From Escherichia coli (GTDB taxonomy: Bacteria > Pseudomonadota > Gammaproteobacteria > Enterobacterales > Enterobacteriaceae), in assembly GCF_003790525.1 (NCBI RefSeq), contig NZ_CP033635.1: a stretch of DNA of 64,000 nucleotides, one strand, 5' to 3'. The notes under the pieces were generated by a model that worked only from the letters and a program-made list of their open reading frames with translations, ran no database searches and was not told the origin of the DNA. Made by a program: the position numbers and the translations under genes. Below are positions 1-28,845 of this stretch, piece after piece (within the stretch, counting starts at the first letter, position 1; every line of letters starts with the position of its first letter).

Positions 1-176
1 TAACTGTCGTCATAGGGCTCAGCGGTCAGTTCGCCGGGCGTCAGGTCTTTAACTTTAGCCAGACGCGACCAGTCATTGTCTGAAAGCGGGTTCGCATAAG
101 GGTCACCGTTCCCCTTATAAACCCACAGGGTGGTCCCGGCCCCTTTCACCGGTGCCAGAGGATTTGGTGTTGGCAT
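1..176 (-). CDS. V: Phage major tail protein V, N-terminal part only (gene continues past window start)
   Basis: Reverse complement of 1..176 translates from ATG at 174..176 as [59 protein letters not shown], which matches lambda gpV N-terminus from memory; lies directly downstream of U in lambda order. Confidence 0.8.
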
Positions 177-183
177 ATCGTCC

Positions 184-579
184 TCACATTTCATAGGTAA
201 TGACATAAGTCAGATCGGCTGAACTCCACAGGCCCGCATCATCGTCGCGCCGGTAGTCATAGCCACTGGCCACCATACTGGTGATCAAATCTGACAGTGC
301 CGGGATATCGCTCATCACCGGATAAATCCGGGACTCCATCCACGAATCCAGCTCTGAATCCGGCACCTGAGCAGGCAGGAAAACTTCAATATGCAGCTCC
401 GCCTGCCAGGTATCGCTGTCCAGCTCTTCGCCCGTGTATTCAGCGCCGGTGAGATAAACGGCAACTGCCGGAAAATCCGCCTCATCAAAAACAGCGGGGC
501 GACCATCAAAAAGCGTCGCCCCGGTGTCATGTTTTTCCAGTGCATCCAGTACGGCTGTACGGAGTTCAGTATTTTTCAT
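184..579 (-). CDS. U: Phage tail terminator protein U
   Basis: 131 aa [46 protein letters not shown]..., near-identical to lambda gpU as recalled; position between Z and V. Confidence 0.9.
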
Positions 580-1151
580 CGCTTTATCACAATCCTCAGT
601 TGTTGTTTCAGCGCATAGCTCAGTTCTTTTGGCAGACGTTCGCGTCGGATACGGTTAACGTTCTCATCAAAAGCCTGTTTCAGTGGGGCCGACATCGGAA
701 TTTTCACCACCTGAATGGGAAGACGATTACGCTTTTTCCTTCCCTTATCGTCATTGCCCTTCGCATACCTGGCTTCTGGCAGACGTTGCATAACATGCCA
801 GCGCCCATTATTCAGTCGCTGGATGAATGCCCGCTGATAACGATGCTGACCGGCTTTGAGTATGCTGTTCGGGCGATGACCAAGCATCCTGATCCCCAGC
901 TTAATAGCAGGGAGATCACCTCGGTTAACGATAATTTTTGCATTCGGATTTCTGACCGTAGCCCGTTTCAGTCTGGATCGCTGTTTAACCAGTTTTCTCG
1001 GCACCCGGGTTTCACGGGCGACCTGAGACGAAGACTGATTAATCGCCGTTGTGGCCACGCGGTTAATGGCCATTGCTGACGCACCGGGCACCGCCGTTCT
1101 GCTGATACGACTGAGGTTTTCAACGGCCTGCTCAAGACCCTGTATGGCCAT
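576..1151 (-). CDS. Z: Phage tail assembly/head-tail joining protein Z
   Basis: 191 aa ORF with lambda gpZ-like N- and C-termini (MAI.GLEQAVENLSRIS ... [22 protein letters not shown]); 4-nt overlap with U. Confidence 0.85.
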   Translation of the reverse strand: MAIQGLEQAVENLSRISRTAVPGASAMAINRVATTAINQSSSQVARETRVPRKLVKQRSRLKRATVRNPNAKIIVNRGDLPAIKLGIRMLGHRPNSILKAGQHRYQRAFIQRLNNGRWHVMQRLPEARYAKGNDDKGRKKRNRLPIQVVKIPMSAPLKQAFDENVNRIRRERLPKELSYALKQQLRIVIKR

Positions 1152-1162
1152 ACATCCCCCTT

Positions 1163-1525
1163 TCAGCGACGACGGTTAACGGCAGGCGGCACGCCACGCC
1201 CAAGCCAGAGATGACAGCTTCCGCCATCATCCGGCGAAACCCGGTCTATCCAGAAGTTTTCCTCACCGATGGTCAGCGTGTCTCCACGCCGCAGTTGCCG
1301 CACATCATCAGTCCGGACAAACAGGGACGGGCTGGAGCCTTCAACGCGCACGCCCTGTCCGGCATAGCTGATATTTTCAGGGTCATCAAAAACACCACGT
1401 ATTACTGCGCCGGGCTGCTCACCGGATGTAATGGTGGCTGACGTTCCCATATGCCCGCGTATCGTTTCATCAGCCCGGGCAATGGCTGTATCAAAACCGT
1501 TATCCCTGATATTAATAACTTTCAT
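1163..1525 (-). CDS. FII: Phage head-tail connector protein FII
   Basis: ORF contains ...DTAIARADETIRGHMGTSATITSGEQPGAVIRGVFDDPENISYAGQGVRVEGSSPSLFVRTDDVRQLRRGDTLTIGEENFWIDRVSPDDGGSCHLWLGRGVPPAVNRRR, lambda FII-like; start taken at internal Met (ORF track start 1561 probably too long). Confidence 0.85.
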   Translation of the reverse strand: MKVINIRDNGFDTAIARADETIRGHMGTSATITSGEQPGAVIRGVFDDPENISYAGQGVRVEGSSPSLFVRTDDVRQLRRGDTLTIGEENFWIDRVSPDDGGSCHLWLGRGVPPAVNRRR

Positions 1526-1874
1526 CTGTAACAAGCCCCTCCAGGACAAGTTCCGCAACATTCACTGGATCAACTCTGACAGTCATACCTGTAACAACAA
1601 TCTCCATATCACTGTCATCATGCGGATGTTTTCCCGCCACATGCAGGGTTTTGAGTACACGAACAGTGCTCATTTCATCCCCGCCAGTGGAGTAGCTATA
1701 CGTCATCAAATGCCTTTCGTTCTCATCACTCTCCTGGTTTTTGTCCTCTGCTTCCTCTTCCCATTCCGCCACCCGCTGCGCTATCTCTGCGGCACTCCCG
1801 GATATATCCGGCTCACGCCCCAGAATCCGGGCCAGTTCATCAAGCCGTTTCAGATTTTGCTCTTTCGTTGCCAT
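1512..1874 (-). CDS. Putative DNA-packaging protein (FI position, not lambda FI-like in sequence)
   Basis: ORF in the position of lambda FI between E and FII; acidic protein; start placed at MATKEQNLKRLDEL... Assignment is positional only. Confidence 0.45.
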   Translation of the reverse strand: MATKEQNLKRLDELARILGREPDISGSAAEIAQRVAEWEEEAEDKNQESDENERHLMTYSYSTGGDEMSTVRVLKTLHVAGKHPHDDSDMEIVVTGMTVRVDPVNVAELVLEGLVTDESY

Positions 1875-1925
1875 ATCAGGCCTCTGTGAAAAAAGACACG
1901 GGGGCATTTCGCCCCCGCTCACGGA

Positions 1926-26799: not shown

Positions 26800-26803
26800 A
26801 AGA

Positions 26804-27046
26804 ATGTTCGCTCTGATTCAACGTGGTCAGATATACACCGATAGTGCTGGCTACCCGGTAAAAATTATTCGCTGCATAAACAACACTGTGTTGTACAGAA
26901 GAATGGATGGGCGAACACAGTCGGTAAAAATAAACGATTTTAATGAACTGTTTGAACGAATCGATCACCAGGAATACCGACAAATTCTGGCAGAAACAGA
27001 GCAGGAAGCTCATCTAAAAAAATTACGGGCCATGAAAAGGAAGTAA
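26804..27046 (+). CDS. Hypothetical phage protein
   Basis: 80 aa ORF. Confidence 0.3.
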   Translation: MFALIQRGQIYTDSAGYPVKIIRCINNTVLYRRMDGRTQSVKINDFNELFERIDHQEYRQILAETEQEAHLKKLRAMKRK

Positions 27047-27204
27047 AGAATGAATAAAGCATTTGAACAATGGGTCCACCAGCGTTACGGCAATCGCTAT
27101 GACCTGACACGAGATGTTGACGGTTTCTACTGTCGTGAAATTGTGAAACGAATGTTTGAAGTGTGGTGCCACTGCCGTGGGCTGAGTGTTGTGTGAGGTA
27201 AAGC

Positions 27205-27441
27205 ATGGCCAATGTGATTCAACTGACTCCCAATGAATGGGTTTGTGAAAGCGTTCTAATCGCAATTACCGGGCTCAAACCAGGCACAATTCTTCGGGCC
27301 CGGAAAGAATGCTGGATGGTTGGAAGAGAGTATATTCACGTATCACCAGACGGTAATCCAAAGCCTTCCAGTGAATGTATGTATAACAGAAAAGCAATAG
27401 ATGCCTGGGTCGCTTCAATGAAAAACAAACAACCTGGGTGA
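27205..27441 (+). CDS. xis: Excisionase (Xis, DUF1233-like)
   Basis: 78 aa directly upstream of integrase; ...EYIHVSPDGNPKPSSECMYNRKAIDAWV... resembles lambdoid excisionase-like proteins. Confidence 0.6.
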   Translation: MANVIQLTPNEWVCESVLIAITGLKPGTILRARKECWMVGREYIHVSPDGNPKPSSECMYNRKAIDAWVASMKNKQPG

Positions 27442-27496
27442 TTTAATGCCATGAAGTATGTAAGCTCGTATCGCTCTTGGGCGTCTGGAGGTATCA

Positions 27497-28810
27497 ATGG
27501 ATAAAGTCAAATATCCAACAGGCGTCGAAAACCACGGCGGCACATTACGCATCTGGTTTAATTTTAAAGGTAAACGTGTCAGGGAAAATCTTGGTGTCCC
27601 TGACACTGCCAAGAACAGGAAAATCGCCGGGGAACTGCGGACATCGGTATGTTTTGCCATCCGCACAGGAAGCTTTGATTATGCTGCACAGTTCCCTGAC
27701 TCCCCTAACCTTCAGGCTTTTGGGGTAAGTAAAAAAGAAATTACGGTGAAGGAACTTGAAGAAAAGTGGCTGGATCTGAAACGAATGGAGATCTCTGCAA
27801 ATGCATTCAATCGCTATGAATCCGTTGCAAGAACGATGGTTCCGAAAATTGGAGGCAGCAGACTGGTGTCATCGGTAACTAAAGAGGAATTGCTGTATAT
27901 CAGGAAAGATTTGCTGACCGGGTACCAGAATTCAACGAAAAACAAAGCAGCAGCAAAAGGACGGAGCGTCGTTACTGTAAATTATTACATGACGACAATC
28001 GCTGGAATGTTTCAGTTTGCTGCAGATCACGGTTACTTAGAAGCAAATCCCTTCCAGGGAATTAAGCCTCTTAAAAGAGCCAGGGCAGAGCCAGATCCGC
28101 TAACTCGTGACGAATTTATTCGCCTGATAGATGCTTGCCGACATCAGCAGACGAAAAACCTGTGGTCATTGGCTGTGTACACAGGAATGCGTCACGGTGA
28201 ACTGGTCTCCCTGGCCTGGGAAGATATCGATCTGAAAGCAGGAACTATTACTATCAGGCGCAATTATACGAAACTCGGTGAGTTCACTCTACCTAAAACT
28301 GAAGCAAGTACAAACAGGGTTGTGCATCTTATCCAGCCCGCTATCAGTGTCCTGAAAAATCAGGCTGAAATGACAAGACTGGGTAAGCAGCACCACATCA
28401 AGGTTCAACTACGTGAATATGGGCGTTCAGTGAATCATGAATGTACTTTCGTATTTAACCCCCAGGTGGTTAGAAAAAGCAAACAGGTCGGTTTTATCTA
28501 CAAGGTAGATTCTATTGGCGACTCATGGGAAACAGCCATTAAGCGTGCGGGCATCAGGCACCGGAAAGCATACCAGTCACGACACACTTATGCGTGCTGG
28601 TCATTATCTGCCGGAGCAAATCCAAGCTTCATTGCCAGCCAGATGGGCCATGCAAGTGCCCAGATGGTGTTCAATGTATACGGAGCATGGATGACTGACA
28701 GTAATGCAGAACAGATCGCAATGCTGAATCAGAAGCTGGCAGATTATGTCCCAATGATGTCCCATGGTCACCAAAGTGACACAAGAGACTTATTAAAATC
28801 AGTGGGTTAG
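27497..28810 (+). CDS. int: Tyrosine-type site-specific integrase
   Basis: 437 aa; arm-binding N-terminus, catalytic region with R (TGMRHGEL), H-x-x-R (RHTYACW), H (GHAS) and Y (NVYGAW) motifs. Confidence 0.9.
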   Translation: MDKVKYPTGVENHGGTLRIWFNFKGKRVRENLGVPDTAKNRKIAGELRTSVCFAIRTGSFDYAAQFPDSPNLQAFGVSKKEITVKELEEKWLDLKRMEISANAFNRYESVARTMVPKIGGSRLVSSVTKEELLYIRKDLLTGYQNSTKNKAAAKGRSVVTVNYYMTTIAGMFQFAADHGYLEANPFQGIKPLKRARAEPDPLTRDEFIRLIDACRHQQTKNLWSLAVYTGMRHGELVSLAWEDIDLKAGTITIRRNYTKLGEFTLPKTEASTNRVVHLIQPAISVLKNQAEMTRLGKQHHIKVQLREYGRSVNHECTFVFNPQVVRKSKQVGFIYKVDSIGDSWETAIKRAGIRHRKAYQSRHTYACWSLSAGANPSFIASQMGHASAQMVFNVYGAWMTDSNAEQIAMLNQKLADYVPMMSHGHQSDTRDLLKSVG

Positions 28811-28845
28811 CCTTCAATACCCGTCATGTTAACTGTGTGGAGGGT
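28811..28845. other. Prophage/chromosome junction (att core region) inside yecE
   Basis: Integrase stop at 28810 is followed within 30 bp by sequence encoding the middle of a chromosomal protein (..NCVEGNTTLYALP..); the yecE reading frame is open only from 28780 and lacks a proper N-terminus. Confidence 0.45.

Follow-up and report, generated by a model that had tools for sequence, protein, structure and literature searches.

A predicted lambda-family prophage in yecE of Escherichia coli with phage-21- and lambda-type virion genes and a non-lambda replication and early region

A stretch of 64,000 nucleotides (nt) from the Escherichia coli contig NZ_CP033635.1 (assembly GCF_003790525.1), referred to below as the window, carries a prophage that ends in the chromosomal gene yecE. 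Positions 1-28839 are prophage DNA and comprise the right-hand ~29 kb of the element, from the start of the tail gene V to the integrase gene int. From position 28817 on, the window is collinear with the yecE-yecN-cmoA-cmoB-torZY-cutC-argS-flh-che-mot-flhDC-otsAB-ara region of E. coli K-12 at 97-99% identity. The window's left edge lies inside V, and the remaining tail genes and the left junction fall outside it. We read the element, with a probability of roughly 0.9, as a temperate siphovirus prophage of the lambda family (lambdoid) that is inserted in yecE, combines known modules in a mosaic and has a replication and early region unlike that of lambda. The whole prophage is probably about 45 kb long. 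All coordinates given here are window positions, and (+) and (-) denote the strands.

The int gene (27497-28810, +) encodes a tyrosine integrase with the Pfam domains Arm-DNA-bind_2 and Phage_integrase, which is 97.3% identical in amino acids (aa) over 437 residues to Int of the Shiga toxin (Stx) 2e phage phiP27. It is followed by the att core TTAACTGTGTG (28829-28839, +), which shows one mismatch to the phiP27 core TTAACTGCGTG; the 11-bp att annotated in the phiP27 record reads CACGCAGTTAA, which is TTAACTGCGTG on the other strand. Imperfect identity to attB extends from 28819, and yecE sequence stands directly 3' of the core. The alignment with K-12 yecE begins at about codon 25 (~74 nt into the gene) and runs from 28817 onward at 97.7% nt identity. 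In the yecE frame, a TGA at 28777 closes the upstream side, and the frame is open from 28780 with no canonical start before the GTG at 28837, the first one in frame; approximately 31 codons are lost at the 5' end. The remaining 5'-truncated yecE (28837-29562, +) encodes 241 aa from this GTG, compared with 272 aa in K-12 YecE. Because the integrase is of the phiP27 type and the junction carries the phiP27 att core, the placement of the prophage in yecE, with int abutting a gene that lacks its 5' end, is confirmed as the initial annotation had proposed. The 241-aa open reading frame (ORF), on whose yecE origin that proposal depended, aligns to K-12 yecE. The phage-side codons (..TRHVNCVEGN, 28792-28839) mimic the native yecE product (..ARHFNCVEGN). 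RefSeq (PGAP) begins the corresponding truncated yecE of strain TUM1886 at an ATT codon, a non-canonical start, within the 3' end of int; this annotation is a guess guided by homology.

This int adjoins yecE in 408 of 5,426 complete E. coli genomes. The closest of them, TUM1886, has the same int-yecE junction (98.8% identity over 26500-31500), and its other junction, about 45 kb away, consists of yecD, the first 96 nt of yecE, TTAACTGCGTG and then phage DNA. It is also the best complete-genome match to 9000-29000, at 98.7% identity over 71%. That yecE is a reported site for Stx phages, as mentioned in the initial annotation, is in print: it is a listed Stx-phage insertion site (PMC8065619; PMC9751135; both cite Recktenwald & Schmidt 2002). 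The phage phiP27 (AJ298298; Recktenwald & Schmidt 2002) has in common with the present prophage the integrase, the yecE target and the 11-bp att core, whereas all its other modules are different, with its own DnaC/DnaB-type replication genes, a contractile tail and stx2e.

The block in the position of the lambda replication genes O and P lies under the promoter pR, between the genes in the cro and cII positions and the late antiterminator gene Q. It comprises, in the direction of transcription, the gene of a superfamily 2 (SF2) helicase (18206-19864, -; Pfam ResIII and Helicase_C), that of a zinc-ribbon/Toprim primase (17236-18204, -; Pfam Zn_Ribbon_Prim, DUF7146 and Toprim_3) and that of a 285-aa protein of unknown function (16379-17236, -). 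The nearest solved-structure relative of the helicase is RadD, and the primase had no match among solved structures. Within the helicase and primase genes, a search for iterons gave weak two-copy repeats only. The view that O and P are replaced by an SF2 helicase and a zinc-ribbon/Toprim primase held up, as both domain assignments were confirmed and no tblastn match to the lambda or phage 21 versions of O and P was found. On the other hand, the HNH endonuclease, initially counted as part of this module, had to be taken out of it. Its gene (19855-20457, -), which overlaps the start of the helicase gene, is a free-standing NUMOD4/HNH homing-endonuclease cassette (Pfam NUMOD4 and HNH_3; PADLOC 'homing endonuclease'), and the slot is filled by unrelated ORFs in Fels-1, TL-2011c and phi467 (in the last a 122-aa ORF with conserved flanks). 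Since other copies of the replication module lack the HNH gene, we regard it as a swappable cassette and not as a replication component.

Region 15950-21300 matches the inducible Stx2f phage phi467 (LN997803) at 97.3% nt identity over the 78% covered, the isolated phage vB_EcoS-611R1 at 94.9%, and Salmonella Fels-1 (NC_010391) at 86.4% over 65%. The module also recurs in Cronobacter and Yersinia phages, and in IMG/VR helicase relatives are found on more than 558 contigs. The phage phi467 matches the window at ~95-97% nt identity, and in the same order, in the immunity region, the cro-side genes, the genes for the helicase, the primase and the 285-aa protein, and a large part of the early-left operon; it differs in having stx2f where the window has a porin gene and an insertion sequence (IS5), and also in its HK97-like heads, another Q (an 831-bp gene) and another integrase. 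In Fels-1, the order cro-side genes/97-aa gene/helicase/primase/285-aa gene/Q and a non-coding element discussed below are the same, while the host, immunity, Q, cassette ORF and structural genes are different.

In aa, the helicase is 67% identical to Eru1A and the primase 58% identical to Eru1B of the Stx2a phage TL-2011c. Eru1, the 'EHEC phage replication unit' (EHEC, enterohaemorrhagic E. coli), was described as taking the place of O and P in phages from which N, cII and cIII are absent as well (Llarena et al. 2021, PMC8044961), and further Eru types have been described (PMC8951638). As in Eru1, an SF2 DEAD/DEAH helicase and then a Toprim protein (~322 aa in TL-2011c) are encoded directly after the cI/cro region, and TL-2011c also has a 53%-identical homologue of the 97-aa gene. 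However, TL-2011c is a short-tailed Stx phage, and its third gene encodes DUF1367/NinB (eru1C) and not the 285-aa protein. The strict definition of Eru1 requires eru1A-C, with eru1C (DUF1367) among them, to match TL-2011c with coverage and nucleotide identity both >80%; judged from the 58-67% aa identity and the different third gene, the module in the window stands outside it. From these comparisons, we take the module to be of the long-known Fels-1/Stx2f-phage type and homologous to the Eru1 unit.

The 285-aa protein had no tblastn match in TL-2011c 14000-27000 and no match in Pfam, NCBIfam or PADLOC; in PHROGs, it falls into unknown-function families only, and against PDB sequences the match was at chance level. 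There are 394 close homologues, and the best 120 of these 394 all belong to enterobacterial prophages and have identities of 79% or more. Its AlphaFold model, built on a 21-sequence alignment, is all-helical and of low confidence (predicted local distance difference test, pLDDT, 66.7; predicted template modelling score, pTM, 0.49), and a Foldseek search of the PDB with this model returned nothing (best E=1.2).

Upstream of the replication genes lie the 97-aa gene in the cII position (20716-21009, -) and a cro-like helix-turn-helix (HTH) gene (21022-21294, -; Pfam YdaS/P22_Cro HTH). They are followed by the divergent cI gene (21429-22118, +), whose product is an S24-peptidase repressor (Pfam HTH_3 and Peptidase_S24) with a Cys-Gly dipeptide as a candidate cleavage site and a GDSM motif. 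The operator/promoter region lies between cro and cI; repeats of the ATCAAGT type occur both there and in the intergenic region downstream of cI, and a good promoter (TTGACA-18-TAACAT) is found at 22182-22211. The pL region and early-left operon (22119-27441, +) hold about 15 small genes (22266-27046), mostly of unknown PHROG families. Among them are genes for a DicA-like HTH protein (22266-22694, +), a 72-aa protein with a ParE-like toxin domain (PF24732; 23800-24018, +), an ORF6N/KilAC antirepressor-like protein (24534-25391, +), a DUF5406 protein (+) and a DUF4222 protein (26804-27046, +); the excisionase gene xis (27205-27441, +) closes the operon. A 69-aa ORF precedes and overlaps the ParE-like gene and could encode its partner (pair 23619-24018, +).

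That the early-left operon lacks recognizable N, gam, bet and exo and is made up mostly of small unknown genes, as first noted, was corroborated by tblastn, Pfam and PHROGs. The cII and cIII genes had no match to the lambda or phage 21 versions, and no recombinase, annealase or RecBCD-inhibitor gene was recognized by tblastn against lambda and phage 21, Pfam or PHROGs. Lambdoid phages without a Rec module are a common and recognized class (LLS type; Zheng et al. 2025, PMC12315714), with which the prophage has in common that exo, bet, gam and any other recognizable recombinase are missing. In the 28.8-kb prophage part, Chi sites occur at 10949, 19198 and 27076 (-) and at 17899 (+), and three of them have the orientation that is active on RecBCD coming in from the right cos end. 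The LLS type typically has at least eight active-orientation Chi sites, clustered towards the right end; the prophage has three in the window and so falls short of this number. For comparison, the prophage of TUM1886 has four active and two inactive Chi sites over ~45 kb, and the flanking chromosome in the window has 11 in 35 kb.

The packaging and virion genes stand in the order cos-Nu1-A-W-B-C-D-E-FI-FII-Z-U-V, as in phage 21 (OL657228) and lambda (J02459), and their origins change along this order. At the window's left end, V is represented by its 5' end (1-176, -; ~59 codons), whose translation matches the lambda V N-terminus and which runs off the window. It is preceded by U (184-579, -; 97% aa identity to lambda), Z (576-1151, -; 62% to lambda; Pfam Minor_tail_Z) and FII (1163-~1525, -; 95% to lambda; Pfam Phage_attach). 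V-U and FII are thus 87-97% lambda-like. The head and packaging genes (1512-8598, -) are of the phage 21 type. The first of them is FI (53% aa identity to phage 21), followed by E (1926-2954, -; 95% to phage 21 and 61% to lambda), D (3012-3359, -; 95% and 55%), C/Nu3 (3396-4901, -; 95% and 51%), the portal gene B (4891-6483, -; 98% and 62%), W (6480-6686, -; 58% to lambda) and the large terminase gene A (6670-8598, -; 94% and 66%). The aa identity to phage 21 ranges from 94 to 100% for A, W, B, C, D and E, and at the nucleotide level 1752-8516 is 95.8% identical to phage 21. Identity to lambda at this level is found at 1-719 (91.5%), 9321-9714 (95.9%) and 10004-10843 (89.7%).

The small terminase subunit Nu1 (8570-9079, -; 169 aa; Pfam Phage_Nu1 over residues 49-150 only) is 46% identical in aa to lambda Nu1 and 40% to that of phage 21. 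In contrast, 92.7% nt identity is shared with the isolated PhiR12 phages. The cos region (9157-9303, -) consists of cosN GGGCGTCGACCT (9292-9303, -), which mismatches lambda cosN at a single base, and cosB, in which the repeat CCGGACAT occurs three times (9246-9253, inverted; 9187-9194; 9157-9164; -). This cosB type is common to PhiR12_1, in which cosN is canonical. Consequently, Nu1/cosB (8570-9291) looks like a third packaging specificity, held in common with the PhiR12 phages. The single base, a G-to-T change, by which cosN departs from lambda, phage 21 and PhiR12 creates a SalI site. It is considered a natural polymorphism because the TUM1886 prophage has the same variant despite a lambda-type cosB.

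In the late region, Q (15957-16379, -) encodes a 140-aa antiterminator (Pfam Phage_antitermQ, E=1e-53) with 80% aa identity to QuuD of DLP12 and 77% to Q of TL-2011c. Convergent with it is a prophage porin gene, a moron (14672-15778, +; Pfam Porin_1, E=9e-126; 59% aa identity to DLP12 NmpC), in the same layout as quuD-nmpC; it fills the slot that holds stx in Stx phages. The IS5 element (13328-14523, +) encodes a 326-aa DDE transposase and has terminal inverted repeats and the target-site duplication TTAG (13324-13327 and 14524-14527); strains Ch1 and TUM1886 have collinear prophages without it. IS5 lies ~145 bp upstream of the porin gene and may affect porin expression or late-gene polarity. 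Two adjacent tRNA genes (12720-12873, -; ARAGORN, Rfam), Arg(tct) and one with a CAT anticodon, sit between Q and the holin gene as in Stx phages; in relatives, the first is called tRNA-Lys or tRNA-Arg.

The lysis cassette consists of a putative holin gene (12032-12304, -), an opposite-strand 125-aa ORF (11498-11875, +), a lysozyme (endolysin) gene (10841-11374, -; Pfam Phage_lysozyme, PF00959), and Rz (10383-10859, -; 90% aa identity to lambda) with embedded Rz1 (10442-10624, -). The putative holin matches holin families below threshold only, is annotated 'phage holin family protein' in relatives and is of a different family from lambda's. The endolysin is 34% identical in aa to that of phage 21 and has no detectable similarity to lambda R. 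The separation of the two genes by the 125-aa ORF recurs in many E. coli prophages. Downstream are the bor lipoprotein gene (ORF 10010-10351, +; Pfam Lambda_Bor; 86% aa identity to lambda and 98% to phage 21) and the YlcI/DUF3950 gene (9503-9697, +; Pfam DUF3950; 95% to lambda). The region is similar to the DLP12/PA-2-type late region (quuD-nmpC-ess-rrr-rzp-bor) in its Q, in the convergent porin gene ahead of the lysis genes and in the downstream bor and ylcI. It differs in the low identity of the porin to NmpC and in the position of IS5, which here is upstream of the porin gene and in K-12 interrupts nmpC. The statement that the structural, terminase, cos and lysis genes are close to lambda can thus be retained for V-U, FII, Rz, bor and cosN, but not for the phage-21-type heads (51-66% aa identity to lambda), Nu1 or the holin and endolysin. 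Relative to both phage 21 and lambda, the prophage differs in its Nu1/cosB specificity, the cosN change, holin, endolysin, Q, the whole early region and int/att, while its heads are near phage 21 and U, FII and Rz are near lambda.

The functional order of the prophage, cos-packaging-head-tail...int-xis-early left-cI-cro-replication-Q-lysis (the tail beyond V lying outside the window), is lambda-like, and it has exchangeable modules at high identity with lambda and phage 21. In a stricter sense of lambdoid, which includes O/P replication and N antitermination, it does not belong to the group, and the authors of the Eru classification term such phages 'non-lambdoid' (PMC8044961). Elsewhere this early region is combined with different heads and integrases, as at mlrA in strain Ch1, and we regard such recombination with other modules as ordinary lambdoid mosaicism. 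The unusualness implied in the initial annotation was therefore not upheld, as each module (the phage-21-type heads, the phiP27-type integrase and the Fels-1/Stx2f replication genes) had been described previously. As an ordinary mosaic at a documented insertion site with no toxin gene, the prophage in itself matters little. It indicates, however, that the helicase-primase early region, of which Stx2a and Stx2f phages are the main known carriers, also travels in stx-negative E. coli, joined there to virion genes of phage 21/lambda and the integrase of phiP27, which is relevant to how Stx-phage backbones get assembled.

A plausible life cycle may be outlined for the prophage. The phage very probably entered by tyrosine-integrase recombination between attP and the 11-bp core TTAACTGCGTG, ~90-100 nt into yecE, severing the 5' end of the gene. 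Self-cleavage of cI triggered by the SOS response would derepress pL and pR, and Xis and Int would excise the phage at yecE. Transcription from pR would run through cro and the 97-aa gene, then the HNH cassette and the genes for the helicase, the primase and the 285-aa protein, to Q. Replication would then be started by the SF2 helicase and zinc-ribbon/Toprim primase that the phage itself encodes, in place of the lambda O/P-DnaB route and perhaps at the conserved G-rich sequence that precedes the helicase gene, and in the absence of Red and Gam the formation of concatemers would depend on host RecA/RecBCD. Finally, Q would antiterminate late transcription across the porin gene (antisense), IS5, the tRNAs, the lysis genes and the cos-linked structural genes, and the Nu1/A terminase would cut at cos.

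Several observations weigh against a complete temperate phage of this kind. The left ~16-20 kb, with the remaining tail genes and the second junction, lies beyond the window. The same mosaic was present in none of the 5,426 complete E. coli genomes searched, so the layout is taken from relatives. Late transcription, on its way from Q/pR' to the lysis and structural genes, would have to cross IS5, which might lower late expression. In addition, with three active Chi sites only, a RecBCD/Chi-dependent lifestyle is weakly supported.

It is possible, although we consider it doubtful, that the prophage is defective (cryptic), that is, integrated in yecE but unable to yield phage owing to IS5 in the late leader, damage to the left arm, or both. 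The fresh 4-bp duplication of an IS5 copy that relatives lack, the location of the left arm beyond the window, and the frequent frameshifts of related prophages (for example, in the terminase, head-tail gene and integrase of Ch1) are consistent with such a defect. However, all phage ORFs in the window are full length compared with relatives and are 93-100% identical to homologues in functional phages, and IS5 occupies an intergenic spacer and interrupts no gene. Moreover, RNA polymerase modified by lambdoid Q generally reads through terminators, which would argue against a block of late transcription by IS5.

A descent from an Stx2f-type phage that lost stx, which would shift the interest to the evolution of toxin phages, appears very improbable. 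The similarity behind this idea is considerable: 10402-23991 matches phi467 at 95% nt identity (~29% of window 1-25000 covered), Stx2f prophages of clinical strains match 44% of 9000-29000 at ~94.5%, and the two tRNA genes are placed like the Stx-phage tRNAs upstream of stx. Nevertheless, between Q and the lysis genes (12900-15950), where stxA/stxB lie in a Shiga-toxin-converting phage, no stxA/stxB, stx pseudogene fragment or deletion scar was seen, and the Q-lysis interval holds only the porin gene, IS5, the two tRNAs and small ORFs. The Q-porin-tRNA-holin layout is intact in several non-Stx prophages, the heads, tails and int are entirely unlike those of phi467, and module exchange accounts for the similarity without a loss of stx.

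Just as improbable is an accessory role of the helicase-primase-HNH block, in defence or as an integrated satellite (P4-like), with replication by unrecognized genes: we found no published experiment on the helicase-primase module, no function is assigned to the 285-aa or the 97-aa protein and the HNH gene matches the PADLOC homing-endonuclease model, but the block lies exactly in the O/P position under pR, the prophage part of the window has no other replication gene, the block is the sole replication candidate in phi467, Fels-1 and TL-2011c, the helicase and primase give no PADLOC-relevant signal, and there is no second integrase and no satellite hallmark. A satellite or phage-inducible chromosomal island as the identity of the whole element was rejected, given its full set of packaging and head genes.

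Another finding concerns the non-coding sequence that separates the 97-aa gene from the HNH and helicase genes (20476-20715, -). This conserved element contains G-tracts (20600-20615, -), then CTTTTCCA (20559-20566, -) and then an invariant core, CATWGGTTARGTAGATC; in the window, the core region reads GGTACATAGGTTAGGTAGATCTCTGTAA (20523-20550, -), and a hairpin is located at 20575-20587 (-). The flanking repeats TAGACGTC...GATGTA (20639-20662 and 20477-20492, -; window version) are type-specific. Between the window and phi467, a block of ~70 nt is common, with unrelated sequence on either side. The 27-nt core GGTACATAGGTTAGGTAGATCTCTGTA (20524-20550, - strand) is 96% identical in TL-2011c, whose neighbouring proteins are 53-67% identical, and in Fels-1 the core is present with one mismatch. 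In IMG/VR, 41 contigs have the exact core 21-mer and a further 20 have the variant of Fels-1, always 140-170 nt downstream of the 97-aa gene and 134-683 nt upstream of the helicase gene. These 41 and 20 contigs were found through the core itself, so 80 loci were collected by the helicase protein alone, of which 70 had enough upstream DNA to be informative. All 70 carry CATWGKTTARRTAGATC, and in the 110 nt before it each has two or more G4+ tracts; two of the 70 were missed in the first scan and proved on inspection to be single-base variants. The G-tracts are on the non-template strand for pR transcription.

To our knowledge, no origin has been described for the helicase-primase replication type. 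Tentatively, the element (20523-20615) may be an undescribed replication origin of the Fels-1/Eru1-type module or a primosome entry site, or else a regulatory site. In the origin reading, transcription from pR through the G-rich stretch would form an R-loop that primes replication, and the primase and SF2 helicase would enter at the adjacent invariant core CATWGGTTARGTAGATC without DnaA, DnaB or DnaC. If true, this would explain how replication is initiated in widespread lambdoid and Stx phages without O and P. Modest as it is, the element is the one lead of wider value at this locus and provides a precise sequence to test. We found no published description of it, and Rfam has no family for it even at E≤10. 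A conserved RNA fold was rejected, since the single covarying hairpin is missing in three of six sequence types. As for a sigma-70 promoter, only weak -35/-10 matches were seen (both strands, by eye), and these are not kept across types; a promoter scan of 15700-23400 gave no more promoter-like sites than shuffled sequences.

Beyond the prophage, the chromosome also differs from that of K-12. Relative to MG1655, it lacks the 771-bp yecV/yecT segment after argS (~39017-39057) and the IS1 upstream of flhD (57334-57341). Between flhB and cheZ, a 2.4-kb insertion with low guanine-plus-cytosine content (42783-45219), absent in K-12, encodes a defence-type dGTPase with an HD domain (42915-44423; PADLOC dGTPase, E=6e-71) and an overlapping 250-aa gene without a family match (44392-45144).

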